Below are positions 1,826 to 24,698 of a stretch of DNA of 64,000 nt, piece after piece. The notes under the pieces are model-generated. The model did not search any database and had not been told where the DNA came from. It saw only the letters and a program-made list of their open reading frames with translations. The translations under genes were made by a program, and so were the position numbers. Location: positions 1 through 64,000 of the forward strand of contig CAZEAE010000001.1 in NCBI GenBank assembly GCA_964510095.1, in the 5' to 3' direction. This DNA comes from an uncultured Elusimicrobia bacterium. GTDB lineage: Bacteria > Elusimicrobiota > Elusimicrobia > UBA1565 > UBA9628. The stretch's first letter is position 1. Each line of letters starts with the position of its first letter.

Positions 1826-1853
1826 ACTCTCGCATCTTGAGCGTGGAGGAACG

Positions 1854-2480: not shown

Positions 2481-2490
2481 CGCCAACAGC

Positions 2491-3760: not shown

Positions 3761-3910
3761 CCACCGTTGACCCTGCCGCCACATGGGCGTGGTACCCTTC
3801 ATATTGATATAATGCGAGAAATCCCCCCGGCCCCCCCATTGAGAGCCCCTCGAGCCAAGCCCGTCTCCCCCTTTTCCCCCTTCCGCGTCGAGCTCGGCCG
3901 CTCGCCCAAG

Positions 3911-6051: not shown

Positions 6052-8160
6052 ATGGAACTGCTGAGCTCGTTTGCCGCCCTCTTCGGATTGAAGGCCGGGG
6101 AGTTCGGGATCCTGATCGTCCCCATCCTCGCCGCCCTGCTGCTCTTCGTCCTCTTCCACACCATCGTCATCGTCGGCGGCACGCAGGTCGCCGTCTTGGA
6201 GCGGCGCTGGCTGGGCGGCTCCATGCCGGAAGGCCGCGTCGTCGCCATGGCGGCCCAAGTCGGCATCCAGGCGCGCATCCTCGGCCCCGGCCTGCACTTC
6301 CTGGTCCCGTTCCTCTATAAGGTCGAAAAATTCCCGATGCTCGAGGTCAAGGAGACCGAGGTCGGCTTGGTCGAGTCCATCGACGGCGACCCCGTCTCCC
6401 CCGGCCGCATCTTCGCCAAGGTCGTCCAAGGCCATAATCTTTTCCAGGACGGCGAAGCCTTCCTCACGAATCAAGGCGAAAAGGGACCGCAGATCCAGAT
6501 CCTGCCGCCCGGCCTCTACCGGATCAACCCGTACCTGTTCAAGGTGGCCAAGGTAGCGGCGCTCAACATCGGCAACAACCGCATCGGCATCGTGGTGGCC
6601 GCCGACGGCCAGCCGCTGGCGCCGGGACGTCTGCTCGCCCGGCGCGTCGATGGCCATGAGAGCTTCCAGAACGGCCAAGCCTTCCTTGAAAAAGGCGGCC
6701 AGAAGGGCCCGCAGATCGACATCCTGTTCCCGGGCTCCTACCGCATCAACTCGAAGCTCTTCCAGGTCGAGGTCCGCGAAGCGGTCATGGTCCCGGCCAA
6801 GAAGGAAGGCCTGGTCACGGCGCGCGACGGCGAGCCCTTGCCGCCCACCGAGTACGTGGCCAAGACCGTGGCCGGCCACCGGGATTTCCAGGACGCGGCG
6901 GGCTTCCTCGCCAACGGCGGGCAGCGCGGGCCGCAGCTGGACTTCCTCAAGCCCGGCACCTACTACATCAACCCGCTGATGTTCGACATCAGCTCCGACG
7001 AGGTCCTGGGCGTGCAGCGCGGCGAAGTGGCCGTCATCGTCTCCAACATCGGCAAGGACCCCGCCGGGGAAGCCCTCAGCGGCAAGGTGCCGATGACGGC
7101 CGACGAGGCGGTCAAATTCGGCGTCGAGCGCTACGTCGTCGACTCCGGCTATCGCGGCATCCAGCGCGACGTGCTGGGGCCCGGCACCTACTACCTCAAC
7201 AAGCTGGCCTTCACCCCGCACATCATCCCGACGACCAACATCACCATCGACTGGGCGGAGGAAAAGGTGGCGGGCAAAGGCGCCCGCGGCTTCGACCCCT
7301 TAGCTATCGTGTCTAAAGACGGGTTCGAGATGACCGTCGAGGTCAAAGTCATCCTGCGCGTCCAGCCCCAGCAGGCGCCCCACATGGTGGCCCGCATCGG
7401 CACCATCGAGAACTTAGTCGAGCACGTCATCCATCCCTTGATCGACTCCTCCTTCCGCAACCAGGCGTCCTCGTCGGAAGCGATGAAGTTCATGCAGGAC
7501 CGCTACGAGGAGCAGCGCAAGGCCGAGCAGCACGTCATCGAAGAGCTCAAGCGCTACCACGTCGAGTGCGTCAGCGTCTTGATCTGCCAGATCGGCCTGC
7601 CCGAGCGCCTGATGCTGACGCTCACCAACAAGGTCGTGGCCTCCCAGCAGAAGTCGATGTACGACTCCCAGCAGGAAGCCGAAGCGCGCCGCCGCGAGAT
7701 GGAGAAGACCAAGGCCCAGGCCGACCTGCAGCCGAGCCTGGTCAAGGCCGAGATCGATGTGGAGATCGCCGCCCAGCAGAAGCAGCAAGCCGTCATCCTG
7801 GCCGAAGGCCGCGGGCAGGCCACGCGCCTGGAGCAGGAGGGCATCGCCGCCGGCGTCGCGGCCGTCGGCAAAGCCGAAGGCGAGAAGATCCTGGCCATCG
7901 GAAACGCCACGGCCGAAGCCTACACCAAGCAGGTGCTGGCGATGGGGCAGGCGCCTTTGACGATCATCGAGGTGATGAAGCACGTCTCCGGCGGCAAGGT
8001 CAAGATCACGCCGGACATCATGGTCAGCGGCGGCGGCCAGGGGCAGGGCGACGGCAACTCGTCGAACGTCCTGTCGGCGTTCATGGCCAGCCTCATGACC
8101 AGCGGGATGAAGCTCGTGCCCGCGAAGCCCGAGACGCCGCCTCCGGGCAAAGCCGGCTAG
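6052..8160 (+). CDS. Flotillin/YqiK-like (SPFH superfamily) membrane protein with N-terminal triple ~75-aa repeats
   Basis: N-terminal TM helix; three tandem repeats (GH.LFQDGEAFL..G.KGPQI.IL.PG.YRINP.LF.V at ~6410-7260); C-terminal region with flotillin-like coiled-coil (EAEARRREMEKTKAQADLQ...AEGRGQATRLEQEGIAAG...AEGEKILAIGNATAEAY). Confidence 0.5.
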   Translation: MELLSSFAALFGLKAGEFGILIVPILAALLLFVLFHTIVIVGGTQVAVLERRWLGGSMPEGRVVAMAAQVGIQARILGPGLHFLVPFLYKVEKFPMLEVKETEVGLVESIDGDPVSPGRIFAKVVQGHNLFQDGEAFLTNQGEKGPQIQILPPGLYRINPYLFKVAKVAALNIGNNRIGIVVAADGQPLAPGRLLARRVDGHESFQNGQAFLEKGGQKGPQIDILFPGSYRINSKLFQVEVREAVMVPAKKEGLVTARDGEPLPPTEYVAKTVAGHRDFQDAAGFLANGGQRGPQLDFLKPGTYYINPLMFDISSDEVLGVQRGEVAVIVSNIGKDPAGEALSGKVPMTADEAVKFGVERYVVDSGYRGIQRDVLGPGTYYLNKLAFTPHIIPTTNITIDWAEEKVAGKGARGFDPLAIVSKDGFEMTVEVKVILRVQPQQAPHMVARIGTIENLVEHVIHPLIDSSFRNQASSSEAMKFMQDRYEEQRKAEQHVIEELKRYHVECVSVLICQIGLPERLMLTLTNKVVASQQKSMYDSQQEAEARRREMEKTKAQADLQPSLVKAEIDVEIAAQQKQQAVILAEGRGQATRLEQEGIAAGVAAVGKAEGEKILAIGNATAEAYTKQVLAMGQAPLTIIEVMKHVSGGKVKITPDIMVSGGGQGQGDGNSSNVLSAFMASLMTSGMKLVPAKPETPPPGKAG

Positions 8161-10255: not shown

Positions 10256-11026
10256 CTACTTCCAGAACTGAGCCTTGTCCGCTAAACGGCCAAGGAAGGA
10301 ACGCTGGTTGCCCTTCGCGGCTTGCAGCGCCGCGTCCCCTGGAGGGGCAGGCTCCGCGACGTCGGCTTGCGCGTTCCTAGGGGTCGACCTTGCCAGAGCA
10401 AGGCGTATCTTCCCGTCATGGCCCGCGGGGCTGCCTGACTGCGCAAGCACGCTCGGAGCGGGTTCGACCAGGGCTTGAGCTGTATTTTCCCCAGTAAAAA
10501 ACCCGTCCAGCGCCGCTTTCATCCCCTCCGGGGAATCGAGCGACAGCCCGATAGATGACAACTGCTTGCTGAGGGGAGCGATCGTGGTGGCGAAGGCCGC
10601 CCGCGCCTTAGGGTTGCCCTGAAAGGGCCGCAAGAAGGCCTGAAGATGATCGTTGACTTCGGCGCCGACAGGCGGCAGGCCTGCGTCCAATCGGATATCG
10701 CTAAAAAGCGCCTGCACCGCGGGCAGAGCCTCCGGCCGTTCGATCGCCTCGATAAGAAGCGCTCCCGCCGTGGCTTGGGTCGGCGTCACTTCCGGACCGA
10801 CCAAGCTTTTGGTCAGGGCTTGGGCCATCAATTGAGGAGAGCCGGCCAACGGAGTCAAGGCCAGGATCTGAGCATTGAGGTCCAGGGCAATCTTGGGCAA
10901 TTGCCCGGCCAAACCGGGACGTTCCGCGCGGATCCCGGAATTCCCGATCGATACCGCGGCGAAGGCCTGCGGGGCAAGAGAGCCGCTCAGTAAAAACAAC
11001 CACGCCGCTACCTTCAATAGGTTCAT
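10256..11026 (-). CDS. Secreted hypothetical protein
   Basis: Start MNLLKVAAWLFLLSGSLAPQAFAAV (signal peptide); Ala/Leu-rich, no recognisable domain. Confidence 0.4.
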   Translation of the reverse strand: MNLLKVAAWLFLLSGSLAPQAFAAVSIGNSGIRAERPGLAGQLPKIALDLNAQILALTPLAGSPQLMAQALTKSLVGPEVTPTQATAGALLIEAIERPEALPAVQALFSDIRLDAGLPPVGAEVNDHLQAFLRPFQGNPKARAAFATTIAPLSKQLSSIGLSLDSPEGMKAALDGFFTGENTAQALVEPAPSVLAQSGSPAGHDGKIRLALARSTPRNAQADVAEPAPPGDAALQAAKGNQRSFLGRLADKAQFWK

Positions 11027-11209
11027 GATGCTTTTATGTGAATCTCTCCTAAGTATTAAGCTGCGCCCCTCTTTTGTCAAGGCCCGCAGTCAAACCCGGT
11101 TTTTCATCGACCTCCGAAACACGCAACCCCGTTTCTGGAGCCGATGCCGCCGACCGCCTTCCCTTCCGCCTCAGGACTTGATCGCGGCCCAGGGTTACAA
11201 TACGATGAG

Positions 11210-13840
11210 ATGAGAAAAGCCTCTCGGCTGGTCCGAAAGTCCCTCCTGGGGTTGTCCTTGCTCCTCTTGCAGCCCTCGGCGTTCGCCGCCCCGGTCAAGA
11301 TCGACGAGGCAGGCCTCGGAGGAGAGATCATGTCCCTGGTGGGCGCGCGGCCCGAGCGCTTGCGCGACTACGCCGTCGCCATCGAAGACGGCCGCTTCGT
11401 CCGCCTGGACCGGCGGATGGGCAAGCCGCTTAAGCCGACCCGGTTCGCCGACCGCGCGGAGTTGGCGAAGATCGCCCGAGAGCTGCGCGACCTGGACCGC
11501 CGCTCGACGCAGAGCGACACGCGGCGCGACACGCAGATCGACCGCCAGGCCGCCGCGACGCTCGCCGCCATCCCCGCGCCCGAGGCCTGGAGGACAGGCG
11601 CGGCCCTGCTCTTCGACGGCGGCAGGCTTGAAGCCGAGACCAGCCTTCAGGGCGACTGGAGCGCGCGCGCGGATTTTGCCAACGGGCGGCTGCGGCGCTG
11701 GAATATGAAGAGCCCTTCCAGCGACACCGAAGTCGAGGTGGGAGACCTGGCCGCAGGCGGCTTGAGCCCCGCTCTAGGGTCAAGCCCGTACTGGAGCGTG
11801 ACCAAGGGGCATGCCGGCTCCGGCGACTGGCTGGATCACCAGTTCCGCGGCCAGGCCTCCTATGTGAACCTGGAGGCGCGGAATTTTCCCGAGGTCCCCG
11901 CGCCGCAATACCAGGGCGGCTTCACCAAGGAGTCCTATTACGTCTTCAGCGGCCTCGCCCAGGCCGGGCGGGCCTATCCCCTCTACGGTCCGGTGGACGC
12001 GGCCTGGAGCGCCCTCGGGGTTTTTCGCCGCACCCAAGCCTTCCCCAACGCCTCCTTCGATGAGAGCGTGGGGCTGCGGGCGAGGATAGGGCAGGATCAT
12101 TCGCTCGGGCTCTTCACCGGCGTCACCCAGGCCGTGGGCCTGCTCAGCGAGGACTGGGCCAACCGGGCCGTCTCGGGCTTGGAGCAACAGGCCGGCATGG
12201 AAAAAGCCCCGCATTCCAATATCTCCCTTTGGGGCCGGCTCCCCTGGCGCCAGGCCGACTACGCGGTGGACCTGGGGCGCCAGGACAACCCCATGACCGA
12301 GGTCTCCAGCCTCCGGGCCTCCTTGGGCGCGCCTGCCGGCGCGGGGCGGCTCTCCGTGTACGGGGCCGGGGAGACCGAGGTCGGCCGACGTATCGAGTTC
12401 GACCGCCGCCGCTCCAGCCTCGGCGCAAGCTGGGCTCCGGACGGCAGGACCCGTTGGTTCGCCGAGTACGGCCGGCAGGACTTTCGCTTTGGAGACGCCG
12501 AGGTAAAGAGCCGCCAGGTTATGGTCGGTCTTGAGCTCTCCGATAAATACCGCACCGGCGCCGGCGTCACATTAGAATCGAGCTTCGGGGGCCGTGAGAA
12601 GCTCACGGCCGGCGGCGCCGATTTCCAAGCCCTGGCCGGCCCCCTGGCCGCGGGGCTTTCCCAGCTCGAGACGGCCTTGAACCAGGCGCTGGCGGTCCTC
12701 GAGACGACGAACGAGGACCAGGCCTGGCTGTCCTTCACCGCTTACTATAACCACCTGCCGGCCGACACCCGCGCGGCCATCGAGGCGGAACTGGGGCCCG
12801 CCGACCGCGACGACTTCGACTTGCCCGCCTGGATCACGGTCATTCGCCAGGGGGCCGGCGGCCTAGCCCAAGCAAAAGCCCTGGTGGGAGACCCCGCCTT
12901 CCTCGATCGGACCTTCACGCGCTACGCCCGCGCCGCGCTGCAGAAGAGCATCGGCGAGACCGAACTGGAGGTCTTGGGCGCGCAAGTGCGCCTGACGCCC
13001 CCCGCCCTCCTCGCGCTGCTTCACGCCTACAGCCTCGGGGTCAGCCCCCTGCCGCCGGTGGGCCGCGACCTGCTCTCCGGCCCCCTAGACCAAAGGGTCC
13101 TCGACCAGATCAACAGGAAGTTCGGCAGCGCCTGTTCCGGAGATTTTAAGACCGTCTCCGCCTGCCTGATCGAGCACGTCCCCGCCGATAAAAAAGCGGC
13201 CCTCGAGGCGGCCTATGGCAAAGATTTGCCGATCGTCCTGGGCGACTCCATGGCCCTCATGGCCCAGGTCCTGCGCCGGGAGCTCAACGTCTTCCTTCTT
13301 TCCGCGATGCTGGCGGCCGAGAAGCTCGACGCGCTCAGCGTGGACCGCGGCCAGCGCCTCGGCGAGATGAACAAGGCGGCCCTGACGCGCTCCTTCGCCC
13401 TCCTAGACCAGCGCCGGCGCGCGGAAAGCGCGCCCCCGCGGGTCCTGGCGCGAGCCGAGGGCAGGCTCCGGGAAGAGCTGGCCCGGCAGGACGCCGACAT
13501 CGCCGGGCGGCTGCGCGAGCACGGCCCCAAGCTGCTGGCCAGCCTGGTCTCCCAACCCTCCTGGCCGAGCAACGTCTCGGTCAGCGTGCCCCAAGAGCAC
13601 TGGCCCGCCCTCTTGTCCCGATACGGCTCCGAGAGCCTGGCCCTCTTCCTGCGCCAGGCCGCCTCCAAGCTCGGGCAGAAGGCGGGATTCAGGATGGTTC
13701 GTTTGCGCCTTGAGTTCAAGAACGACCCCGACCTGGGCCTCTCTTTGACGCGCGGAGATATCCTGCGCCTCACGCTGCCGCCGCTGGGTCCCGGCCGCGA
13801 CCCCGCCTCCGCTCTAGAGGCGATCCTTTCGGCGCTTTGA
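11210..13840 (+). CDS. Large secreted hypothetical protein (~876 aa)
   Basis: Signal peptide MRKASRLVRKSLLGLSLLLLQPSAFAAP; the N-terminal half is Gly/Ser/aromatic-rich with alternating patterns compatible with beta strands, the C-terminal half is helical Ala/Leu-rich; no recognised domain. Confidence 0.5.
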   Translation: MRKASRLVRKSLLGLSLLLLQPSAFAAPVKIDEAGLGGEIMSLVGARPERLRDYAVAIEDGRFVRLDRRMGKPLKPTRFADRAELAKIARELRDLDRRSTQSDTRRDTQIDRQAAATLAAIPAPEAWRTGAALLFDGGRLEAETSLQGDWSARADFANGRLRRWNMKSPSSDTEVEVGDLAAGGLSPALGSSPYWSVTKGHAGSGDWLDHQFRGQASYVNLEARNFPEVPAPQYQGGFTKESYYVFSGLAQAGRAYPLYGPVDAAWSALGVFRRTQAFPNASFDESVGLRARIGQDHSLGLFTGVTQAVGLLSEDWANRAVSGLEQQAGMEKAPHSNISLWGRLPWRQADYAVDLGRQDNPMTEVSSLRASLGAPAGAGRLSVYGAGETEVGRRIEFDRRRSSLGASWAPDGRTRWFAEYGRQDFRFGDAEVKSRQVMVGLELSDKYRTGAGVTLESSFGGREKLTAGGADFQALAGPLAAGLSQLETALNQALAVLETTNEDQAWLSFTAYYNHLPADTRAAIEAELGPADRDDFDLPAWITVIRQGAGGLAQAKALVGDPAFLDRTFTRYARAALQKSIGETELEVLGAQVRLTPPALLALLHAYSLGVSPLPPVGRDLLSGPLDQRVLDQINRKFGSACSGDFKTVSACLIEHVPADKKAALEAAYGKDLPIVLGDSMALMAQVLRRELNVFLLSAMLAAEKLDALSVDRGQRLGEMNKAALTRSFALLDQRRRAESAPPRVLARAEGRLREELARQDADIAGRLREHGPKLLASLVSQPSWPSNVSVSVPQEHWPALLSRYGSESLALFLRQAASKLGQKAGFRMVRLRLEFKNDPDLGLSLTRGDILRLTLPPLGPGRDPASALEAILSAL

Positions 13841-13878
13841 TGTCCGACAAATCCGACCGACGCTGTGAGGTGAAAAAC

Positions 13879-14757
13879 ATGAGAAGCAATAGCTATCGGA
13901 GCCTGGCGGGAGTTCTCTGCCTGCTCGCCCATGCGAGCCTCGCTTGGGCCGGCGCGGGGTTCGGCCCGGGGCAAAACCTGGATGTCGAAGAGTTCTTGCG
14001 CGCAGCCCGGGCCGGCGACGGCCCGGCCGCGCCGCGGTCATGCCACCCCGGCCAAGCGGTCGAATGGGTGGCCATCAAAGGAGGGAAATTCGCGATGGGC
14101 GCCGACAACGGCGATAGCGATGCCAAGCCGCTCCACGAGGTCGCCATCAAAACCTTTGAGATGTCCAAGGCCTTGATTACCGTGGAGCAATACGCCGAGT
14201 GCGTAATCAAAGGCGGTTGTACGGAGCCGGGCGCCGGTGAGTACTGCAATTGGGGGAAGACGGACCGGCAGCGCCACCCGGTCAATTGCGTGGACTGGAA
14301 ACAGGCCGACCGGTACGCGAAATTCAAGGCCGCGCGGTTGCCCAGCGAGTCCGAGTGGGAGTACGCGGCGACCAGCGGGGGCAGGAACCAGAAATACCCT
14401 TGGGGCAACGAGGAGCCGAGCTGCGAGAGGGCCGTGATGCACGGCGAGGACGCCTATGGCTGCGACGGCGGGGGCACGATGCCGGTCTGCTCGAAGCCCG
14501 ACGGGAACACCGCGCAGGGTCTGTGCGACATGGCGGGAAACGTCTGGCAGTGGGTGCAGGACAAATATCAGGACTCGTATGCCGATGCGCCTGCGGACGG
14601 CAGCGCGTTTGAGGCTGCGGGCTCCTACCGGGTATGGCGTGGCGGCTCCTTCATCAACGGCGGCGCCAGGTACCTGCGGGCCAAATACCGCAACAACGTC
14701 GGCCCCGGCTACCGCGGCAGCCTCGTTGGCTTCCGCGTGGCGAGGTCGAGCCGTTGA
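13879..14757 (+). CDS. Secreted FGE-sulfatase (SUMF1/formylglycine-generating enzyme) domain protein
   Basis: Signal peptide then SUMF1 domain motifs: VTVEQYAECV, HPVNCVDWKQADRYAKFKAARLPSESEWEYAA, GNVWQWVQDKY, RVWRGGSFINGGARYLRAKYRN...GFRVARS. Confidence 0.75.
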   Translation: MRSNSYRSLAGVLCLLAHASLAWAGAGFGPGQNLDVEEFLRAARAGDGPAAPRSCHPGQAVEWVAIKGGKFAMGADNGDSDAKPLHEVAIKTFEMSKALITVEQYAECVIKGGCTEPGAGEYCNWGKTDRQRHPVNCVDWKQADRYAKFKAARLPSESEWEYAATSGGRNQKYPWGNEEPSCERAVMHGEDAYGCDGGGTMPVCSKPDGNTAQGLCDMAGNVWQWVQDKYQDSYADAPADGSAFEAAGSYRVWRGGSFINGGARYLRAKYRNNVGPGYRGSLVGFRVARSSR

Positions 14758-14821
14758 CCAGGAGGAAGGCCCGATTCGGGGCTGCCAGGAGTTCGATAAG
14801 ACTTGAAGCAAAGGAGAAACC

Positions 14822-15394
14822 ATGAAAAGCAAAAGGACGCCTTCACGACTCAAGATCGCGCTGGCCCTGACGGCGCTGTGCCTTTCCAGCCAGGCCGTCG
14901 CCGCGGAGACTTCCCTCGGCGAAGCCTTCGGCTCCGTGCAGGAAACGGTCCAAGCCGGCAAGACGCGGCTCAAGGCGACCCGCGCCGCCCCGGTGATCAT
15001 CGCCGAGCGCGGCGTATACAAGGCCTCGCTGACGACGCTTCTCGCCAAGCAGAAGTGCTCATCGCAATTCGAGCAGGTCAACGGCCGCGAGCCTCTGGCG
15101 ACGTGCGCCGTTGACGCCGGCGCGCCGGGAATGATCAAGCCCGTCGCGATCCTTCCCTTCGGGCTTCACGGCGAGTTCGACTCCGAGATCGGCGCGGGCT
15201 CAAAAGTGGGCTGCACCGGCGGCATCCGCGCAGACGCGGGCCTGGCGGGCCAGTTCCAGATATTCGTCGGCCTCAGCCCCTACAGCCTCGATTATTCGAA
15301 GGAGCAGTTCCAGCAGTGCTTCGAGTCCGTGATCTCCAAACTCCAGGCCAAGGACCGGGTCATGTACTTCGAAGCGGTTCAGACGGCGAAATGA
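14822..15394 (+). CDS. Secreted Cys-containing hypothetical protein, paralog family A (member 1)
   Basis: Signal peptide + conserved leader MKSKRTPSRLKIALALTALCLSSQAVAAETSLGEAFGSVQETVQAGKTRL shares ~85% nt identity with the 5' end of the 17336 gene; AAGGAGA RBS. Confidence 0.5.
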   Translation: MKSKRTPSRLKIALALTALCLSSQAVAAETSLGEAFGSVQETVQAGKTRLKATRAAPVIIAERGVYKASLTTLLAKQKCSSQFEQVNGREPLATCAVDAGAPGMIKPVAILPFGLHGEFDSEIGAGSKVGCTGGIRADAGLAGQFQIFVGLSPYSLDYSKEQFQQCFESVISKLQAKDRVMYFEAVQTAK

Positions 15395-17226
15395 GACGGC
15401 AGGCGATCCCGCTCGCGGCCTTGGCCGCGCTGCTGGCGGCGCTTGTCCTGCCCGTCGGCGCGGCGGACGGCCCGGCCGCCTCCGAGGTCGACCTGAGCGC
15501 GCGCTACCTGCCGGGCGGGTCATGGTTCGACGTGGGCGACCAGGGGCTGGCGATACGCCTGACAGGCCGCCCTGCCGTCAACGGGATCGTGGATTTCCGC
15601 GGCCAAGCGGGGGGCGCCTTGGCCTTCGAGGCCCGTCCGCTCTCTTCGGCGCAGCCGCCCTACGGCTACTCCTTGATCGGAAGCGCGGTCTCCGCGCGCG
15701 TCACGCGCTTCGGCGCGGGCTTCCTTCTAGAAGGCCAAGCGGGCGGCAGACCCCTGGCGCTGACCTTGGAGCGCCTGCGTGATCAAGACTACCAGGTCGT
15801 CGGCCGCGACGGAACGAAGCTCAAGGCCTGGATCACCCCCTCCCTGGCCCGCCTGCAAGGACGCTTCGAGCCGGAGAAAACATCGCGAGAGGGGCTGGCC
15901 GTCCTGGGCGCGGCGCTGGCCCTGATGTTCTCGGAGCAACCCGCGACGCCGCCTCGCGCCGCCTCCGACGCCGGCGCAAGCGAAGCAGCTCACGAACCCG
16001 CCGCTGCTTTGAATGAGAGCGTCTCCGCCGAGGGATTGGACTTGGACGCCCTTTTCGACGGCGTGAAGGACTTCCGCGGAGCCGTCCATGTCCACACCTC
16101 CCTCTCGCGCGACAGCCACGCCTCGCCGGAGGATCTGGTCAAAGCCGCCAATGAGATCGGCCTGGACTTCGTGATGACCTCCGATCACCGGGGGCAGGAC
16201 GTCTACGCGAAGTCGCTGCGCGGCATGCAAGGCGGCACTCTCTTCATACCCGGGATGGAAGTCATCCAAGGAGGCTCCGGGCTCTTCGGGAACTGCTGGC
16301 CGCCCTCGGTCTGCAACTCGGCTCTCTACTTGAACATGAGCGATTCGACCACGGTCACCAATCCAGATCTTGAGCGGCTGCTGACGGGCCCGCGCGGCCC
16401 GGAAGAACTTGTGATCGTGGCCCATCCCTTGGGTTTCAAAGATTGGGAGCACGGAAACATCGACGGGATGGAGATCTACGATCTGGCCGATGAGTTCATG
16501 CCGCCCTGCGTCTGGGGGACCTTGCGCAGGATCCTCGCGCTGGTCCTGCGGGCCGTCGGCGTCCGGTTGTTCGACCAGCCCACGGAGGACATCCTGATCG
16601 ACCGGCTGCAAAGGCCCGACGCGCACCTCAAGAAGTGGGACGAATTGCTCTCCCAGGGCCGGCACGTCGTGGGCGTCGGGGCTCCCGACGCCCATCAGAA
16701 CATGAGGATCTTCGGGGTGCAGCTGGACCGCTACGTCTTGACCCTGCGCTTTCCTTCCGTGCACATCCTGGCGCGCGAGCTGACCGCGCAGGCGCTGGCG
16801 GCCGCTCTCAAGAACGGCCGCAGCTACACCTCCTTCGACCTGCTCGCCGATCCCTCGGGGTTCAGATTCTCCGCCGCGGACGGCCAATCGTCGTATACAC
16901 AGGGAGACAGCATGCGCTTGGCCCGGGATCGGCCGGTGGTCTTCACCGCGATGTCGCCCCGCGAAGGCAGGATCAGGCTATTCAAGAACGGAGCGCTCGT
17001 CCAGGAGGCGTCCGGGGCACAGTTGGGCTTTACGACGCACGACCCCGGGGCGTATCGGGTCGAAGTCGAGCTGAACCTCAAAGGAGAATGGAAGCCTTGG
17101 ATCTTCTCGAACCCCATCTACTTGGAGCCAAGCCCCGAGACTCCAGAGCAGAAGGAATCGTCGCGGGACAACAACGCTTCGGCTGGCAGTCAAACCGGGC
17201 TTTCCAACGGCGGACCAAATGGATAG
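15391..17226 (+). CDS. Secreted PHP-domain (polymerase/histidinol phosphatase-like) metal-dependent phosphoesterase
   Basis: Start MRRQAIPLAALAALLAALVLPVGAADG overlaps the upstream stop (ATGA); PHP motif AVHVHTSLSRDSHASPEDLVKAANEIGLDFVMTSDHR. Confidence 0.6.
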   Translation: MRRQAIPLAALAALLAALVLPVGAADGPAASEVDLSARYLPGGSWFDVGDQGLAIRLTGRPAVNGIVDFRGQAGGALAFEARPLSSAQPPYGYSLIGSAVSARVTRFGAGFLLEGQAGGRPLALTLERLRDQDYQVVGRDGTKLKAWITPSLARLQGRFEPEKTSREGLAVLGAALALMFSEQPATPPRAASDAGASEAAHEPAAALNESVSAEGLDLDALFDGVKDFRGAVHVHTSLSRDSHASPEDLVKAANEIGLDFVMTSDHRGQDVYAKSLRGMQGGTLFIPGMEVIQGGSGLFGNCWPPSVCNSALYLNMSDSTTVTNPDLERLLTGPRGPEELVIVAHPLGFKDWEHGNIDGMEIYDLADEFMPPCVWGTLRRILALVLRAVGVRLFDQPTEDILIDRLQRPDAHLKKWDELLSQGRHVVGVGAPDAHQNMRIFGVQLDRYVLTLRFPSVHILARELTAQALAAALKNGRSYTSFDLLADPSGFRFSAADGQSSYTQGDSMRLARDRPVVFTAMSPREGRIRLFKNGALVQEASGAQLGFTTHDPGAYRVEVELNLKGEWKPWIFSNPIYLEPSPETPEQKESSRDNNASAGSQTGLSNGGPNG

Positions 17227-17335
17227 GGCCGTTTCTGGGGCCAATGCCAGGCTCGGCTTGCCCTTGCGCCTCAGGCCGAGCGCCCGACTTGGGGCTACAA
17301 TGAGTTCAAGAGAACTTGCCGGAAAAGGAGAAGCC

Positions 17336-18043
17336 ATGAAAAACAAGATGACGACTTCACGCCTCAAGATCGCGCTGGCCCTGACGGCGCTGTGCGCTTC
17401 CAGCTGGGCCGCCGCCGCGGAGACATCCCTCAGCGAAGCCTTCATCTCCCTGCAGGCGACGGTCCAAGCCGGCAGGGCGCGGCTCGACCAGGCCGCGGAA
17501 AGTTCGAAGCCCGCCGATATGGATGAGGACGACGTCGTCGTCACCCCTGGAATTGGCCATTGGGTCATGGACAAAGAAGACCGGGTCGGCCAAATCATCG
17601 AGATTTATCCAAACGGAGCCGCGCGTTATCAGGTCGGGAGCGACGTCTATATCTCGAACTATCTTTCCCTGGAGCAGGAACATGGAGACGGCGTGTGGAC
17701 CGGGGACACGGTGATCGATACCGACAATGAGATCGGAACGGTCATGCGCATCTTCTGCACGCGCAACCCGCGGGCTTTGCGCGATCCGGCCTGCCGCATC
17801 CAGTACAAGGTGAGAAACAGCTTCTATATCGCCAAAGGCGGCCTCAAGCGCGAGGTCCAGGAATATGTCAAGTCGGACTTCCCCCACCTCGGCCAGAAAG
17901 TTTCGCGAGGCTCCATGATCATCACCTCGGAGAACAATACGTTAACGGTGGATCAGCTCTTCTCGGACGGCCGCGTCCGCTTTCGCGTCGGCGCAAAATC
18001 AGAGATCCTGACCAGAGACCGCTACACCGCGGTCCAGCGTTGA
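17336..18043 (+). CDS. Secreted hypothetical protein, paralog family A (member 2), with three ~50-aa SH3-like repeats
   Basis: Leader MKNKMTTSRLKIALALTALCASSWAAAAETSLSEAFISLQATVQAGRARL matches family A; AAGGAGA RBS at 17324-17330; lower GC than surroundings. Confidence 0.5.
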   Translation: MKNKMTTSRLKIALALTALCASSWAAAAETSLSEAFISLQATVQAGRARLDQAAESSKPADMDEDDVVVTPGIGHWVMDKEDRVGQIIEIYPNGAARYQVGSDVYISNYLSLEQEHGDGVWTGDTVIDTDNEIGTVMRIFCTRNPRALRDPACRIQYKVRNSFYIAKGGLKREVQEYVKSDFPHLGQKVSRGSMIITSENNTLTVDQLFSDGRVRFRVGAKSEILTRDRYTAVQR

Positions 18044-18062
18044 ACGAAATGAAGGGGGGAAT

Positions 18063-18752
18063 ATGAAAAAATCGATATCCATCCGCCGCGCGGGGTCTTC
18101 CGTCGCCGTGATCCTAGGCGCCCTGGGGATTCTTGCCGCGACGAGCTCTGCTCAAAGCCCGGTCGAATGGAACGCCGGCGACCCGGTGATCCAGCTTCAG
18201 CAGCGCCTGGCCGAACAGCCCGCCGCGGCGACTCCACCGGCCAGGCCCGTGTCCATCAAACCCGAGGAGAAGGAGGTTAGCGGGATCGCCGACCCCGCTT
18301 TGACCGGAGACTACCGGCTCAAGGAGATCCGCGCCCAGGGCTTCCCTGAAAAACTGCGTTCGCATTACTGCCCCGACCGCCTCAGGGTCGTGCTCGACGA
18401 CCCTTCCCGCCGCGTCACCGTCTTCGGGAAGATGGACGACGAAGAGGGACCCGACGGCGAGTATCCTGGATACCGCCTCCTCAAGACTTTCTCCCCCTCT
18501 CGCCTGGTCAAGGAACCGGACGAGGTCGACCGCGGAGCCGTGACCGAAACGGCATTCGACGGCAAAGAGGTGCGCACCACCCATAACGGCTTCATGCTGC
18601 TGATCTTCAGCGTAGTGCATGAATACACCGGCCTGCGCCTGACCAGCCAGGACGTCTTGGTCTGGAAGCATTCCGAGACCGTCGTGCCGGCCGGCGCACT
18701 GCTCTCCAACGATGAAGACTACACCTGTCACTATGACAGAGCCGCCCGCTGA
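18063..18752 (+). CDS. Secreted hypothetical protein, paralog family B (member 1)
   Basis: MKKSISIRRAGSSVAVILGALGILAATSSAQSPVEWNAGDPVIQLQQRLAEQ shared with the 22001 gene (~88% nt identity over ~70 nt); RBS AAGGGGGG. Confidence 0.5.
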   Translation: MKKSISIRRAGSSVAVILGALGILAATSSAQSPVEWNAGDPVIQLQQRLAEQPAAATPPARPVSIKPEEKEVSGIADPALTGDYRLKEIRAQGFPEKLRSHYCPDRLRVVLDDPSRRVTVFGKMDDEEGPDGEYPGYRLLKTFSPSRLVKEPDEVDRGAVTETAFDGKEVRTTHNGFMLLIFSVVHEYTGLRLTSQDVLVWKHSETVVPAGALLSNDEDYTCHYDRAAR

Positions 18753-18767
18753 CGAAACACCTCGAGG

Positions 18768-20348
18768 TTGAACATGAAACGCTTGATGAACCCTGTCGCG
18801 CCGCTCCTGTCGCTCTCGTTGATTTTGACGGCCCCAGGCTTGGGCTGCTATGAAGCCGCGGCCGCCAGCTTCAAAGCCTTGCGAGTGGCGCCGCCGTCGA
18901 GCGCCATGAGCTTCAATCCGGGAGCTCTCGGCCGCTTCCCTGTCTCTTATCAGGGCGCCGGTTTGACCGCGCCGGGGTTTTTGACGCCGCTGCCCGTGAT
19001 CTCCGCGTTGACGCAGCCTGCCAGCATCCCCCAATTGAGCCCTTCGGCGCCTTCGGCGCTTGAGGGCGCGGCAGTCCCCGCGGCAATCGCGGCCACAGTC
19101 GAGGCGGGCCCCTCTTGGCAGCAGCGGCTTTCGGCCCTTGGTGAAGAGGTCAAGGGAATCGTTTCCTCCCGAGATGTCGGCGACCAAGCCGCGGTCCTGC
19201 GCCGCATATTCGAAGCCGGCCTAAGGCTTTCAGTCGCGCCCGAGACTCCCGAGGGCGCGCCAAAAGCCGCCTCCATTGGCTCTCCGCGGACGCGAAGGAT
19301 GCCCGAGGTCCTGGAGATATCCGAGTCCCGACGCCTCGACACGCTCGAAGGCCTATACGTCCGGACTCAGCCCCAAGGAGCGGTGGCCCCGCGCTCGTCG
19401 CCCCTCAAGAATAGGACCGCAGGAAAAATATCCCCGGAGCTCGATAGGATGCTGCGGCCCGAGAACGTCTATGACGTGACCGTCAGCTTGATAGCTCATC
19501 CTTCCGTGACCGAGGAAGACCAGCTGGTCTACTATTTGTCCGAGCTCGAAGGAGCCTCCTACCGGCACGACCACAGGAGCGGAAAGATATCCGTCCAGGG
19601 GATCAGCGGCCGGGATATCCGCGTCATCGCGGGCTTTCCCGCCGTGAGCCGCATCGCGGGGACATCCAAGGCGCCGACAGACGCCGCCACAAAAGGCCAG
19701 GGCGACAATCCGGAGGAAAAGACGCCCGTCATCTTCGTCGACAAGAAGCTCCGCCCGGACGTGGCCCTGCGCGTCCTGGAAGGCGCCGAACGGAACGACT
19801 TGGCGGCGCTCGACGGCAAAATCAATATCACCGTCGAAATCCGATCCAACCCGCGCAACCCCATGATCCTGATGAAGGGCGCCAACGGCTTTAGGACGAT
19901 GTTCTATCTGCACGAGGCCGGGGAGATGATCCGCGAACTGCAGTTTCGTTGGCACAAGCCTTCGACCTGGCTCCCGCGCGATGCCGACCCCGACAAGATG
20001 GACGCCGCCGAGCAGATGGACCTGGTGATCGCTTACGCGAAGGAAGCGTTCAAAGGGATCGTTTCCCGGGAAGGCAAGCCGAAAACGCCTTCAGAAAACT
20101 CCGGAATCTCCGGACTCTCGACAAAGAACGTCGTGCTGACGCTGACCGGACTCCTTAGCATAACCGGTCTCTTGGGCACATTGGGAATATTGACCGGGTT
20201 TTTCGCCTCCCTCCTGCCCCAAGTCCCTATTGAAGTCGCAGATTACATCTATGCCGTCAGCGGCAAGGCTCTCATAGGAGTGGCGGCCGGGACGGTTACT
20301 CTGGCCCTAGCGGGCATAGCCGCCTACCTTCTCTGGGCAAGAGAGTAA
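18768..20348 (+). CDS. Exported hypothetical protein, paralog family C (member 1), C-terminal double TM anchor
   Basis: First ~150 aa (signal + LSLSLILTAPGLGCYEAAAASF...PPSSAMSFNPG.LGR.PVSYQGAGLTAPG...SWQQRLS.LG.E.K.IVSSRD.GDQAA) conserved with the 20354 gene; unique C-terminal domain ending in two hydrophobic helices. Confidence 0.5.
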   Translation: MNMKRLMNPVAPLLSLSLILTAPGLGCYEAAAASFKALRVAPPSSAMSFNPGALGRFPVSYQGAGLTAPGFLTPLPVISALTQPASIPQLSPSAPSALEGAAVPAAIAATVEAGPSWQQRLSALGEEVKGIVSSRDVGDQAAVLRRIFEAGLRLSVAPETPEGAPKAASIGSPRTRRMPEVLEISESRRLDTLEGLYVRTQPQGAVAPRSSPLKNRTAGKISPELDRMLRPENVYDVTVSLIAHPSVTEEDQLVYYLSELEGASYRHDHRSGKISVQGISGRDIRVIAGFPAVSRIAGTSKAPTDAATKGQGDNPEEKTPVIFVDKKLRPDVALRVLEGAERNDLAALDGKINITVEIRSNPRNPMILMKGANGFRTMFYLHEAGEMIRELQFRWHKPSTWLPRDADPDKMDAAEQMDLVIAYAKEAFKGIVSREGKPKTPSENSGISGLSTKNVVLTLTGLLSITGLLGTLGILTGFFASLLPQVPIEVADYIYAVSGKALIGVAAGTVTLALAGIAAYLLWARE

Positions 20349-20353
20349 AAACC

Positions 20354-21811
20354 ATGAGACTCCTAATGAAGCCCATCGCGCCGCTCCTGTCGCTCTCCTT
20401 GATCCTGACGGCTCCGGGCTTGAGCTGCTTTGAAGCGGCGGCTGCCAGTTTCAATATCGTGAGGGTGACGCCGCCGTCCAGCGCCATGAGCTTCAATCCG
20501 GGATCGCTCGGACGCCTCCCTGTCTCTTACCAGGGCGCAGGTTTGACCGCGCCGGGGCTTTTGCCCCCGCCGTCCTTAACCTCCGCGCTAACGCTGCCTA
20601 GAGGCTATCCCCAATCAAGCGCCACGGCGCTCCCGACGCTTGCGGGCGCGGCCGCCCCCGCGGCGGTCCCCGCCGCAGTCGAGCCCGGAGCCTCCTGGCA
20701 ACAGCGGCTCTCCTCTCTTGGAGACGAGATCAAGGCAATCGTTTCCTCCCGGGATATCGGCGACCAAGCCGCGGGCCTGGGCCGCATCTTCGAAGCCGAC
20801 CGAATACTTTCAGCCACGACGCCAGGAGAAGGGGGCTTTGTGCCCGCAACCCGCAAGGCAGCAAGCGGCCTGAAGACGCCCAAGGCCGCCGCTGGCGGCG
20901 CAGGCCAGATCTCCCCGGAGGGAATGCGCGAGCACCGCTTCGAAGCCCTCATGGACGAGCGCGCCGAACGATATCGATCCGCTCACGCCCGGCTCGAATT
21001 CCTAAGCGGACACGCGAACGGCCTGAGCTCCGCGCTGGTGTCGCACATGGATTGGATGCTGCTTCCGATAGTCGGCTTCACGCTGGCGTGGAACATGCCC
21101 GTCTTGGCGGCCGTCGCGCTCCTGACGTTAGCCGCGACCGCAGCCCGATCCTACGCGCTGTACAAGGTCGCCGACCGCATCGGAGGCTTGTACGAGTCCT
21201 GGGGCCAGGGGCTGCAATCACTGCTTCGCTTGGAGCCTTCCTTGGATGGATCGGAGAAGGCACGCCTGGCCCAGGGAATGTACGACCTGCTGAGCTTCCC
21301 GCGCCGCGTCAGGGTTTTCGGAAGATACTACCCCATAAGCGTCGACGAGAACTGGCATCGCTGGGCCTCGATATTCCGGACTCATCTCGCCTCATTCCTA
21401 GACGACAGAAGCAGGCGAGAGTTGGTCCGATTGAGTTTTGAGCGCTCTCAGTACGCTCTCGGAAGGATCAGCCAACGCGACACCACGGACGCGAACGCCT
21501 ATTTTTCAGTTTTGATGCCTCTGCGGCTGCATACCCTGCTTAACGAACGGCAAAAAAAAGACTCTATCGAGTCCATGCTCGAGTTCTATGAGAGGGCGCT
21601 CTGGGTCCAGGGCTTCACCTACCCGATGGATGGCCAGGGCTTCGACGAGGTCGATCAAATGCTGCGCGACCGGCAGATACCGCGCGAATCAATCCGAAGC
21701 TTTTACCCCAGGTTCTACGCCTTGCTCGACCGGCAGCCATTCTTGGAGAGCCGGCCGTTACTGCTTAAGGTATTGAACCGCATGCGCGAGAACTTTAAGG
21801 AAAAGATATGA
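20354..21811 (+). CDS. Exported hypothetical protein, paralog family C (member 2), with internal TM hairpin and unique C-terminal domain
   Basis: N-terminal 150 aa paralogous to the 18768 gene; its own C-terminal ~230-aa domain is unrelated to member 1. Confidence 0.5.
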   Translation: MRLLMKPIAPLLSLSLILTAPGLSCFEAAAASFNIVRVTPPSSAMSFNPGSLGRLPVSYQGAGLTAPGLLPPPSLTSALTLPRGYPQSSATALPTLAGAAAPAAVPAAVEPGASWQQRLSSLGDEIKAIVSSRDIGDQAAGLGRIFEADRILSATTPGEGGFVPATRKAASGLKTPKAAAGGAGQISPEGMREHRFEALMDERAERYRSAHARLEFLSGHANGLSSALVSHMDWMLLPIVGFTLAWNMPVLAAVALLTLAATAARSYALYKVADRIGGLYESWGQGLQSLLRLEPSLDGSEKARLAQGMYDLLSFPRRVRVFGRYYPISVDENWHRWASIFRTHLASFLDDRSRRELVRLSFERSQYALGRISQRDTTDANAYFSVLMPLRLHTLLNERQKKDSIESMLEFYERALWVQGFTYPMDGQGFDEVDQMLRDRQIPRESIRSFYPRFYALLDRQPFLESRPLLLKVLNRMRENFKEKI

Positions 21812-21981
21812 AGAAGACGATCTTGATGCGCCGCGGCGGGGTCGGCCCAGACAAGAAATCGGGCCTGTCAAACCCTGTTTTTCAGCGACCGTCGGAATGC
21901 ATAACGGCGCTTCTGGAGCCAATGCCGCGCGCCGCCTTACCCGCAGCCCCAGGCCGAGAACCCGACATGGGATTACACTGA
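21808..21981 (+). pseudogene. Remnant 5' end of a family-B gene (MKKTILMRRGG...) fused to the conserved upstream element
   Basis: ATG overlapping the stop of the 20354 gene (ATGA); first ~35 nt match the family-B starts (atgaaaaagatgatcttgacgcgccgcg / atgaaaaaatcgatatccatccgccgcg), then diverges into non-coding-like sequence; 57 codons. Confidence 0.3.
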
Positions 21982-22000
21982 GGATATGAAAGGAGAAGAT

Positions 22001-22807
22001 ATGAAAAAGATGATCTTGACGCGCCGCGCCGGGCTTCCCGTTGCGCTGATACTCTGTACGTTGGGGACCATGGCCGCGACGGGCTCGGCCCAGAGCCCGG
22101 TCGACTGGAATTCCGGCGACCCCGTGCTCCAGCTTCATCAGCGCCTGGCCGAACAGACGCCGGCCGCCGTCTCACCCACCGGCGCGGCGGTGCTGGAAAC
22201 GGGACGCCCCGTGCTTGATCTCGTGAACAAAGTCGCCGGGTTGTATATGGGAGACAAGAACCCCGACACCGCCGTTCTAGAACCCGACCGCCGCAAGAAT
22301 CAACTGAGAGTCTCCTCGTGGCTTCAGAAGAAGTCCGAGATCCGAGCGGAAATCCTTGAGCCCGTTGGAATCAAAAAAGGAGACGCGATTTTAGTTTATG
22401 ATAAAATCGCGCCTTTATCCTCCAAGATCCTGGGGGTTTATGAAGAAGGTTACCTCTATTTCGAGGGACGAAGCCGCTGGGTCGCCACTTCTGATTACTC
22501 AGACACCACGGCTCCGACCTATGTCATCAAGAAAGCTGAGGACATCTTCCTCGAAGTCGGCGAGATCGATGGCATGCGGGCGGGGCAGGCCGTCTGCTTG
22601 AAGGAAGACCATGACTCCGGTGGAGACAAATTCAAGGCAGGAAAAAAAGGAAAGATCGAGCATGTTTTCTCGAACGGCGTCGCTGAAGCCTCCTTCAGCC
22701 CCCCGCTGAATATCGTTCGATTGCCCTTGGCTTTTTTGGGGATGAAAGAGAGTCTTTTTTTGAAGATCGCGGATTTGAAAGACTGTTCAACCAGGAGGAA
22801 AAAATGA
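22001..22807 (+). CDS. Secreted hypothetical protein, paralog family B (member 2), SH3-like repeats
   Basis: AAGGAG RBS 6 nt before ATG 22001 (the ORF track start at 21986 includes the RBS); leader MKKMILTRRAGLPVALILCTLGTMAATGSAQSPVDWNSGDPVLQLHQRLAEQ; the body is ~50% GC. Confidence 0.5.
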   Translation: MKKMILTRRAGLPVALILCTLGTMAATGSAQSPVDWNSGDPVLQLHQRLAEQTPAAVSPTGAAVLETGRPVLDLVNKVAGLYMGDKNPDTAVLEPDRRKNQLRVSSWLQKKSEIRAEILEPVGIKKGDAILVYDKIAPLSSKILGVYEEGYLYFEGRSRWVATSDYSDTTAPTYVIKKAEDIFLEVGEIDGMRAGQAVCLKEDHDSGGDKFKAGKKGKIEHVFSNGVAEASFSPPLNIVRLPLAFLGMKESLFLKIADLKDCSTRRKK

Positions 22808-23443: not shown

Positions 23444-23800
23444 ATGCGCGCTCTCATCGTAGACGACGACGTAAACGTCGCCAAGATCCTGCGGCGGCAT
23501 TTGACCGCGTGGGGTTGGGAGACCGACGTAAGCACCACCGTGGCCGACGCTATCATGCTCTTCAAGGAAGGCCGGTATGACCTAGCGCTTTGCGACGTGG
23601 ACTTGCCGGACGGCGACGGTATATCCTTGGCCAGTGTCTTTCTAGGGGCTTTGCCGTCGCTGTCGGTCATCATCGCTTCCGGCGATCCCAAGAATCTGGA
23701 ACGCGCCCAAGAAGCCGGTTTCGCGCGCTGCCTCGAGAAGCCTTTTTCTCTGGAGAATCTCAAAGCCTTGCTCGAAGAAGCCCTGAAGGGCCGGCTGTAA
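23444..23800 (+). CDS. Stand-alone response-regulator receiver (CheY-like) protein
   Basis: MRALIVDDDVNVAKILRRHL...LALCDVDLPDGDGISLA with the phospho-acceptor Asp context (LCDVDLPDGDG); 118 aa, no output domain. Confidence 0.8.
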   Translation: MRALIVDDDVNVAKILRRHLTAWGWETDVSTTVADAIMLFKEGRYDLALCDVDLPDGDGISLASVFLGALPSLSVIIASGDPKNLERAQEAGFARCLEKPFSLENLKALLEEALKGRL

Positions 23801-23828: not shown

Positions 23829-24698
23829 GTGACCAATAAGCCGATGGCCTTCGCCGCCGTCCTCACCCAGTTCAGAAAGGAGGCCGGCTACTCCTCCGCC
23901 CGCGACTTTTATAGGGCCGTCGGAGCCCAGGGCACCTTCGGCTGCACCTACGCGCAATACCTCAACATCGAGGCGGGCCGCTCGACGCCGAAGCCCACCC
24001 TGGTCCGCAAGATCATGGCCCTGCTGGAACTCTTCCCCCGCGACGCCAAGGGCCGCGAGTTCATCACCGCCTATTTCAGGGCGCTGCTCAAGGATGAAGA
24101 TTTTTTCGAACTGGCCCTTCAGGCCCTCTCGGGGGGGCCTTCGGCGCAGGGACAGGACGACGCGCCATTGAGCCAGGCCCTGAAGACAAGCGTCGCGCTA
24201 AAACAGGTCTGGCTGACCGACAAGCAAGTCGCCGTGATCGAGGGCGACCGGACCGCCTACTGGTGTTTCGAGGTTTTTTGCAATGACGGCCGGGACTGGG
24301 GAACGCTGGAGCTTTCCCACCTGCTCGGCCACAATGTGAAGGCGATCTCGGCGGCTCTTAAAAAACTACAAAAAGCCGCTCTGATCGTGGCGGCCCCGGA
24401 TGGGCGCTACCGTTGCTTTGCCAAGGACAAGATCCTCGCTTTCCCCCGGAAGGACATGTTCCTCCCGGAGAACATCGACCGCGCGCGCGGCTATCTGGAG
24501 GAGATGGCGCAAAGCCGCGGCCGCTTCGAGCTGTACCAAAACCTCAGCCTGCGCGCTTCCTCGAAACGTCTCAAGCAATACTACCCCCACCTGGCCCAAA
24601 GCGTCGCCGGCGCCAATATCTATTCGAGCCCGGAAAAGGGCGACGACACGGGCTTCTACGTGATCGAGACCATCGTCCGCAGGCTGTTCGACTTCTAA
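23829..24698 (+). CDS. HTH-domain protein (XRE-like N-terminus; resembles the TIGR02147-type paralogous family)
   Basis: N-terminal FRKEAGYSSARDFYRAVGAQGTFGCTYAQYLNIEAGRSTPKPTLVRKIMALL fits an HTH-XRE fold; the remaining ~200 aa have no recognised domain. Confidence 0.5.
   Translation: MTNKPMAFAAVLTQFRKEAGYSSARDFYRAVGAQGTFGCTYAQYLNIEAGRSTPKPTLVRKIMALLELFPRDAKGREFITAYFRALLKDEDFFELALQALSGGPSAQGQDDAPLSQALKTSVALKQVWLTDKQVAVIEGDRTAYWCFEVFCNDGRDWGTLELSHLLGHNVKAISAALKKLQKAALIVAAPDGRYRCFAKDKILAFPRKDMFLPENIDRARGYLEEMAQSRGRFELYQNLSLRASSKRLKQYYPHLAQSVAGANIYSSPEKGDDTGFYVIETIVRRLFDF

Follow-up and report, generated by a model that had tools for sequence, protein, structure and literature searches.

The stretch of DNA analysed here (the window, 64,000 nucleotides of contig CAZEAE010000001.1 from an uncultured Elusimicrobia bacterium) comes from a Hainich groundwater metagenome (ENA ERZ1292641), in which it forms one end of a 257-kb contig; window position 1 is the contig end, and the G+C content is ~65%. 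It carries three full copies of a gap-free element of ~113 nt (a non-coding block of ~115 nt), all on the + strand, which precede gene 11210 (copy D), gene 17336 (copy A) and gene 22001 (copy B). Judging from its sequence and from that of its homologues in related contigs, this element is probably a shared promoter region that depends on a regulator and acts at the DNA level. The reading builds on the conservation pattern, the spacing of the motifs, the arrangement of the genes and the lack of RNA or coding signal, all of which are direct observations.

Extent and copies of the element

The three copies align without gaps over 113 nt with pairwise identities of 66–72% (79/113 or 70% between A and B, 66% between A and D, 72% between B and D); pairs of 113-nt windows drawn at random from the same 64 kb reach 27.5% ± 5.7%. 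Their longest exact match is 11 nt. The 5′ end, GTCAAACC (17189 in copy A, 21867 in copy B), was placed by a repeat finder and two motif searches. Two upstream blocks stand out: block 1 (GTCAAACCnnGnTTTnCAnCGnC) is exact in all three copies and has no other site in the window at up to three mismatches (0.15 expected), and block 2 (TTCTGGRGCCRATGCC) is exact in the three copies only, the three further matches with three mismatches being within chance (3.4 expected).

The first-pass annotation of this DNA had noticed that genes 17336 and 22001 are preceded by similar sequences, and these do match without gaps (17229–17305 and 21907–21983, 55/77 identical positions, 71%). The proposed size of ~75 nt was too small, since the repeat begins ~32 nt further 5′, at 17189 in the last codons of ORF (open reading frame) 15316–17226, whose end is overlapped by block 1 of copy A, and since the gap-free stretch reaches TACAAT at 17296–17301. 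The number of copies is also higher, as a third full copy (11089–11201, before gene 11210) had been missed. Likewise, the description of the downstream genes as paralogs holds only for genes 14822 and 17336, which have their first 50 aa in common; genes 11210, 17336 and 22001 show no mutual similarity in blastp. Because the genes 3′ of the three full copies are non-homologous, the element was not carried along with a duplicated gene.

The 11–26 kb region in which these copies lie is a co-directional run of genes whose products mostly belong to no family, and most of the proteins inspected at the N-terminus there begin with a signal-peptide-like sequence. The region also encodes a protein with an FGE-sulfatase domain, a weak PHP-domain protein and a stand-alone receiver domain.

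Conservation in related contigs

The product of gene 17336 (235 aa) has six cluster-level homologues among 5.8 billion proteins, all on Elusimicrobiota-type metagenome contigs. These contigs, together with those carrying weak homologues of gene 22001, are hereafter the related contigs. They hold eight further unique full elements (one each in L004, L002, L083 and L076, two each in L005 and L084), bringing the total to 11 full copies from the window and six other Elusimicrobiota contig sets, and "short forms" of the element occur in L086, L004 and L081. The full copies align nearly gaplessly (alignment A5), their spacing is near-identical, and those of the related contigs again lie upstream of genes. 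Seven of the 11 are in divergent intergenic regions, where promoters are required, and in L084 one element takes up all 126 nt between the start codons of two divergent genes.

The sister lineage that these contigs represent carries other block 1 and block 2 sequences, GTCTCAYG and TGAGACGGCCGAACGCC, at the same positions. This split is complete, all window-lineage copies having GTCAAACC and TTCTGGRGCC and all sister-lineage copies GTCTCAYG and TGAGACGGCC, with mean identities of 69% within the window copies, 77% within the sister lineage and 57% between the two. Within the sister lineage, pairs of copies from the same genome are 75–77% identical, compared with up to 85% between genomes. Therefore, as same-genome copies are no more alike than cross-genome ones, the copies are old and individually maintained rather than recently spread or homogenised. 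Several contigs of different sample origin have the element at the same place ahead of the orthologous gene. Its conservation before both orthologous and non-homologous genes in other Elusimicrobiota contigs is what the family-wide regulatory signal suggested at first would lead one to expect.

Beyond the third copy found in the 64-kb window, no Elusimicrobiota copy appeared in the representative genomes of GTDB. The 51 motif matches in that collection all came from unrelated taxa and none extended past the seed under the element profile. Since only such chance matches were obtained, the species is evidently not in the GTDB representative collection. Scanning JGI (Joint Genome Institute) metagenomes with a sister-lineage 18-mer gave 23 matches, one of them real (L076), and scanning viral contigs gave 10 matches, none of them real.

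Per-column information over the 11 full copies, with positions that assume the conserved hexamer to be a −10 box, falls into discrete segments that follow one another as block 1, block 2, a pyrimidine tract, CCnCAGG and the hexamer (Table 1), and conservation ends near the hexamer. Duplication and rearrangement have clearly shaped the locus, from which one might argue that the element is a functionless, neutral relic of old segmental duplications. This is scarcely credible, since blocks, invariant columns and fixed spacing persist over lineages that are 57% identical overall while the 5′ flank is unconserved, the flanking genes are not homologous, and the upstream blocks and the hexamer are lost only in remnants internal to operons. 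A small protein-coding gene was also considered and rejected, since conservation does not follow a period of three (lag-3 autocorrelation 0.08), every reading frame is closed in at least one copy, and the copy lengths differ by non-multiples of three.

Table 1. Features of the window and of related contigs discussed in the text, and conserved segments of the element. Positions with a sign assume that the hexamer is a −10 box.
Feature	Position	Strand	Remarks
Copy D	11089–11201	+	block 1 11089–11111; block 2 11133–11148; CCTCAGG 11169–11175; TACAAT 11196–11201
Copy A	17189–17301	+	block 1 17189–17211; block 2 17233–17248; CCTCAGG 17269–17275; TACAAT 17296–17301
Copy B	21867–21979	+	block 1 21867–21889; block 2 21911–21926; CCCCAGG 21947–21953; TACACT 21974–21979
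20 nt 5′ of block 1 (5′ flank)			0.55 bits/column
Block 1	−124 to −100		1.27 bits/column
Block 2	−82 to −61		1.51 bits/column
Pyrimidine tract	−60 to −41		1.26 bits/column
CCnCAGG	−40 to −33		1.68 bits/column; ends 20 nt (21 in L084 copy 1) 5′ of the hexamer
TACAAT-like hexamer	−12 to −7		1.77 bits/column, highest segment; T, A, C and last T invariant
After the hexamer	+1 to +20		0.98 bits/column; partly conserved leader common to orthologues
Predicted short 5′ leader of gene 17336	17302–17335	+	start site predicted at ~17307–17309 from the sequence
Remnant C	14758–14821	+	5′-truncated; between the stop codon of the FGE-sulfatase gene and gene 14822
Duplicate of ribosome-binding site and first 31 nt of gene 22001	21797–21840	+	89% identical to 21990–22033
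Stand-alone response-regulator receiver gene	23444–23800	+	118 aa; directly 5′ of the candidate regulator
Candidate regulator	23829–24698	+	289 aa; N-terminal XRE-like helix-turn-helix, central winged helix, DUF4423-like; in the operon 3′ of copy B
Leaderless-type genes	28964 (PEPCK); 25369 (316-aa protein g25369); 47491 (HEAT-repeat protein); 28868 (radical-SAM protein)	+; +; −; −	
Minus-strand promoter sites	L084 2418–2470; L083 189–240		also L076, L002, L005

The element as a probable regulator-dependent promoter

The pattern TAnnnT, which comprises the most conserved positions of the −10 box, is the textbook signature of a sigma-70-type promoter. All 11 full copies read TAC..T at the conserved hexamer, with T, A and T at positions 1, 2 and 6, and in none of them is there a TTGnnn 16–18 nt from it, CCnCAGG standing there instead. 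Canonical TTGnnn-N16-18-TAnnnT promoters occur elsewhere in the window, and a TTGACA-N17-AATACT promoter serves the divergent gene adjoining copy D (10256–11026). With canonical promoters present in the genome, the organism uses ordinary sigma-70 promoters, and the absence of a −35 box from 11 copies is therefore meaningful. Such an absence usually points to a promoter that depends on an activator or on an alternative sigma factor.

We read TACAAT as the probable −10 box of a sigma-70-family promoter lacking a TTGACA-like −35 box, the place of which would be occupied by the invariant CCnCAGG. Transcription would start ~7 nt after the hexamer, near 11208–11210, 17307–17309 and 21985–21987, so that gene 11210 would give a leaderless mRNA and genes 17336 and 22001 mRNAs with short leaders of ~15–30 nt and a strong Shine-Dalgarno sequence. 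The pyrimidine tract and blocks 2 and 1, held at fixed spacing, could be the sites of one or several clade-specific transcription factors that recruit RNA polymerase, and several unrelated secreted-protein operons would thereby be placed under one control circuit. That the −10-like 3′ end lies at the correct distance from the gene starts agrees with the original suggestion of a shared promoter or 5′ untranslated region.

The gene starts are informative in this respect. Gene 11210 has its ATG 8 nt after the hexamer of copy D without a Shine-Dalgarno sequence, a start backed by a signal peptide and by the NCBI gene call of 876 aa (a homologue search with this product found only itself), and a 787-aa gene of L084 begins 7 nt after its hexamer, again without a ribosome-binding site. 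The leader of gene 17336 contains a small AGTTC/GAACT hairpin and the Shine-Dalgarno sequence GGAG at 17327–17330, and is partly conserved among orthologues. Elsewhere in the window, TAnnnT is found 6–7 nt before the ATG, with no Shine-Dalgarno sequence, at the genes for PEPCK, the 316-aa protein g25369, a HEAT-repeat protein and a radical-SAM protein; two of these four leaderless-type genes also have canonical TTGnnn −35 boxes. Therefore, leaderless mRNAs appear to be common in this Elusimicrobiota genome.

Promoter integrity also seems to track need, as far as the sequences tell: remnants of the element inside operons carry TGCCAG (14783) or GACAAT (L081) in place of the hexamer. This loss again accords with the regulatory signal proposed in the first-pass annotation.

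The same motifs could instead be read directly by an alternative sigma factor, of the extracytoplasmic function (ECF) type or another of group 3/4, through CCnCAGG and the TACAAT-like hexamer; no activator would then be needed and the upstream blocks would have another role, as repressor sites or as a divergent promoter. A non-canonical −35 motif that is invariant in 11/11 copies at a fixed 20 nt (21 once), in a genome where canonical TTGnnn exists elsewhere, would suit such a factor, and sets of secreted-protein operons are typical of alternative-sigma regulons. We nevertheless regard this alternative as unlikely. Neither the ORFs of the window that were scanned against Pfam nor the gene tables for the related contigs yielded a sigma factor gene, TAnnnT is typical of housekeeping sigma-70 and not of ECF −10 motifs, and the conservation of ~75 further bases on the 5′ side at fixed spacing is left unexplained by a sigma factor alone. 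When the consensus sequences of sigma-54 (GG-N10-GC), sigma-28 (TAAA-N15-GCCGATAA) and ECF factors (AAC-N16-CGT) were compared informally, by eye, none fitted the conserved columns and their spacing.

Alternatively, the element could be transcribed from a promoter within block 1, or 5′ of it, to give either a small RNA or a cis-regulatory RNA with a defined structure, that of a riboswitch-like leader or an attenuator. Its length of ~115 nt, its position before genes and its strict spacing would suit an RNA leader, and a small GC-rich dyad before the hexamer has one compensatory variant (CGCG/CGCG in L005a). However, Rfam 15 gave no match at the gathering threshold in the whole window and none at E ≤ 1 in 10900–22200, and RNAalifold on the 11 copies gave −7.0 kcal/mol on the forward and −11.7 kcal/mol on the reverse strand with covariation terms of +1.26 and +0.19, that is, no support, within the limited power of 11 sequences. 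The covariation that the first-pass annotation had thought might reveal an RNA structure is thus missing from these copies. Single-sequence folding gives z-scores from −1.5 to +1.4, with differing folds for the three window copies; genes starting 7–8 nt after the hexamer without a ribosome-binding site suit a leaderless start and not a long leader; and no + strand sigma-70-like promoter lies upstream of or inside the element, except for the overlapping one in copy D. A structured RNA on either strand was accordingly rejected on Rfam, RNAalifold (with 7 and with 11 copies) and folding z-scores, and a transcribed RNA of any of these kinds appears most improbable.

Two smaller structural candidates were set aside as well. 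The T-run of a supposed intrinsic terminator in block 1 (GGTTTTT) exists in copies D and B but is absent from copy A and from every sister copy. The long-range inverted repeat between blocks 1 and 2 of the sister lineage (GTCTCA/TGAGAC) is represented in the window only by AAAC/GTTT in a shifted register, which is too weak.

The minus strand of the 5′ half of the sister-lineage element carries a sigma-70-like TTGCRC-N16/17-(TGG)TATCnT that points away from the main promoter. It is intact in five sister copies that have a divergent gene, for a helix-turn-helix (HTH) regulator or a SnoaL-like protein, within ~200 nt, and is not intact in two copies without a divergent gene, nor in L005b, where a divergent regulator gene lies 70 nt away. 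From its integrity near divergent genes it follows that the sister-lineage element is a back-to-back bidirectional promoter. The window copies are without this second promoter.

A candidate regulator

Under the regulator-dependent promoter reading, the candidate factor would be the 289-aa protein with two HTH motifs encoded 3′ of copy B, perhaps together with the adjoining receiver protein. It is gene neighbourhood that suggests this link, which is the weakest step of the scheme. Homologues of ~285 aa are linked to the element in every related contig with enough context: the start codon of the regulator gene abuts the 5′ end of the element divergently in L084, L083 and L076, in L005 the distance to the homologue is 70 nt, in L004 the homologue lies immediately 5′ of the element, and in L002 a partial homologue is located ~2.3 kb upstream. 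The window homologue, which matches a sister-lineage protein with a tblastn E-value of 3e-34, is co-directional and 1.85 kb 3′ of copy B, not adjacent and divergent, and the divergent gene adjoining copy D has no homology to the sister-lineage regulator.

A profile of the family built from 60 members matches winged-helix repressors in the PDB (SmtB, E 1.6e-4), and the AlphaFold model, with a predicted local distance difference test score (pLDDT) of 91, contains a central winged-helix domain and has no full-length structural analogue. The regulator family comprises ~280 representatives at 50% clustering, and our searches found no characterised member of this ~285-aa DUF4423-like family.

A more specific version of the promoter reading would be that the ~115-nt unit is the operator-promoter of an undescribed regulatory system of a groundwater Elusimicrobiota clade, in which the two-HTH protein, perhaps with the receiver protein, binds blocks 1 and 2 and has co-evolved with them, and in which the module was copied before unrelated secreted-protein genes to form one regulon. 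The split between the window and sister block sequences would then exist because the factor co-evolved with blocks 1 and 2. We put this version forward as a tentative possibility.

Several points weigh against the promoter reading and its regulator. The start sites, and hence the assignment of the hexamer as −10 box, are inferred from the sequence, and we know of no sigma factor consensus that CCnCAGG fits. Copy D also has a TTGATC-N17-TACGAT that overlaps the conserved hexamer, which makes the exact hexamer used at this copy ambiguous. The GC-rich dyad of the spacer, CCCG-N3-5-CGGG, is unexplained under the promoter model. The three copies are those of the 64 kb of the source genome that were searched, and the GTDB scan contained no Elusimicrobiota copy. 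As for the regulator, the window protein is only ~29–32% identical to the sister-lineage proteins, its individual Pfam and NCBIfam HTH matches (XRE-type HTH, winged-helix, DUF4423) are all below the curated cut-offs, and the response regulators in the same loci are equally possible as factors.

The dyad occurs in the spacer between CCnCAGG and the hexamer of most copies (window 17276–17295, 21954–21973 and 14763–14782, and the same columns in related loci), with the variant CGCG-A-CGCG in L005a, and it may be an operator.

Remnants and history of the locus

The sequence at 14761–14821, first described as a variant lacking the central ~50 nt, is instead a 5′-truncated remnant (remnant C), since its colinear alignment to copy A covers no more than the 3′-terminal 67 nt of that copy (49/67 identical positions, one 1-nt gap). 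It keeps CCAGG, the 20-nt spacer and a leader with a Shine-Dalgarno sequence, has the degenerate TGCCAG (14783–14788) in place of TACAAT, and was not picked up by the element profiles. The hexamer is also mutated, to GACAAT, in the operon-internal remnant of L081. In this closest relative, nothing but the remnant separates the orthologue of gene 14822 from that of gene 17336, and the window has a PHP-like gene and a full element in its place.

Paralogy in the locus is limited to N-terminal modules, in the gene pairs 14822–15394/17336–18043, 18063–18752/22001–22807 and 18774–20348/20354–21811. In these pairs of secreted-protein genes, the common modules measure 50, 59 and ~175 aa, with identities of 76%, 68% and 63% and exact DNA matches of 33, 18 and 24 nt, respectively, and the C-terminal parts are unrelated. 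The sequences suggest a chimeric, modular family of secreted-protein genes with past recombination at the gene 5′ ends. The 44-nt duplicate of the ribosome-binding site and start of gene 22001 lies 26 nt 5′ of copy B, holds the stop codon of gene 20354 and looks like the scar of a rearrangement that put the promoter there. Together with the exact matches of 18–33 nt in the gene 5′ modules, it indicates that promoter and gene 5′ ends rearranged together, and the earlier idea that the promoter moves along with the gene 5′ end is compatible with the duplicate, which fits at least one such joint move.

These chimeric neighbours that have only N-terminal modules in common, the duplication that flanks copy B, and no other copy, on its upstream side, the presence of the same element before non-homologous genes and an IS200-like Y1 transposase gene at 47580–48401 could all be taken as signs of a mobile or recombinogenic DNA unit, whether a MITE-like (miniature inverted-repeat transposable element) repeat, a propagating "mobile promoter" or a site for shuffling gene 5′ cassettes. 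We think this very unlikely. The copies are old, with the within-window identities (66–72%) and the within- and between-genome identities of the sister lineage given above. Their longest exact match of 11 nt is below the requirement of homologous recombination. The three copies share no inverted repeat, and their termini carry none, which also led us to reject a MITE. All copies are in direct orientation, the position before the orthologous gene is kept in several contigs, and no real copy was found in viral contigs. The element itself, put forward at first as a possible recombination substrate, does not look like one: the longer exact matches (33, 24 and 18 nt) belong to the gene 5′ ends and not to the element.

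Other features of the window

A 57-codon ORF (21808–~21978) begins in the 44-nt duplicate and reads through copy B. Within the predicted coding region of gene 22001–22807, an AT-rich, near-perfect hairpin at 22381–22414 (CGCGATTTTAGTTTATGATAAAATCGCG) has T-runs on both sides and a terminator-like score on both strands.

Further away, the Y1 transposase gene adjoins a giant ORF on the minus strand (48437–63994, more than 5185 aa) that runs off the window and has internal repeats ~1674 nt apart and a sub-threshold FlgD_ig match near its C-terminus (24.3 bits, cut-off 27). The gene for a Band_7 (SPFH) protein (6052–8160) contains four diverged tandem repeats with a period of ~222 nt at 6458–7206. 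At the contig end, a phosphate-related cluster (119–6007) encodes a PAS/HAMP histidine kinase, a PhoU-like protein, a PHO4 phosphate transporter and a polyphosphate kinase.

Significance and comparison with known systems

To our knowledge, almost nothing is known of the transcription signals of the Elusimicrobiota, which are mostly uncultured. If the regulator-dependent promoter reading is true, it would give this phylum a concrete promoter architecture, which combines a TAnnnT −10 box with frequent leaderless starts and an upstream module specific to the clade, and would supply a first functional hypothesis for the ~285-aa DUF4423-like family. It would also allow the secreted or cell-surface proteins of a regulon to be listed straight from metagenome-assembled genomes.

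Promoters of leaderless mRNAs have reportedly been described in mycobacteria and other bacteria. Gene 11210 and several housekeeping genes of the window resemble them, with a −10 hexamer 6–8 nt before the ATG and no Shine-Dalgarno sequence. In contrast, only one of the three window copies of the element is of this kind, the two others having short leaders and strong Shine-Dalgarno sequences.

In activator-dependent sigma-70 promoters, for instance the pho-box promoters, the site of the activator replaces the −35 box, and class I sites are centred near −61 to −92. The element is similar in having a good −10 box, no TTGACA-like −35 box and upstream blocks at fixed helical positions, and in standing, as the promoters of such regulons do, before several unrelated operons. 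It differs from them in that the ~105 nt 5′ of the hexamer are conserved as one gap-free unit, which is unusually long, and in that its motifs match no known regulator site.

Regulator genes are also known that diverge from their target, with operators and back-to-back promoters in the common intergenic region. The sister-lineage element, abutted by the gene of a putative HTH regulator and with its back-to-back promoters, resembles this type, whereas all three window copies are without a divergent regulator or a minus-strand promoter, the homologue being located inside the operon of copy B.

Finally, putative mobile promoters have been described as sequences with at least 80% identity over at least 50 nt (Matus-Garcia et al., 2012, Nucleic Acids Res, PMC3488235), and in the example of Treponema brennaborense the conserved core extends to about −120 (PMC3488235). 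Like these, the element is a homologous non-coding sequence within ~150 nt or less before the start codons of non-homologous genes in one genome, and its conserved core also reaches about −120, as in T. brennaborense. In contrast to them, its best 50-nt windows are only 72–76% identical, and its copies look ancient and maintained, not recently propagated. The element adds a new, clade-specific case to a known kind of feature and does not represent a new class of mechanism; the case is also an old and maintained one in which non-homologous genes are served by a single promoter region.

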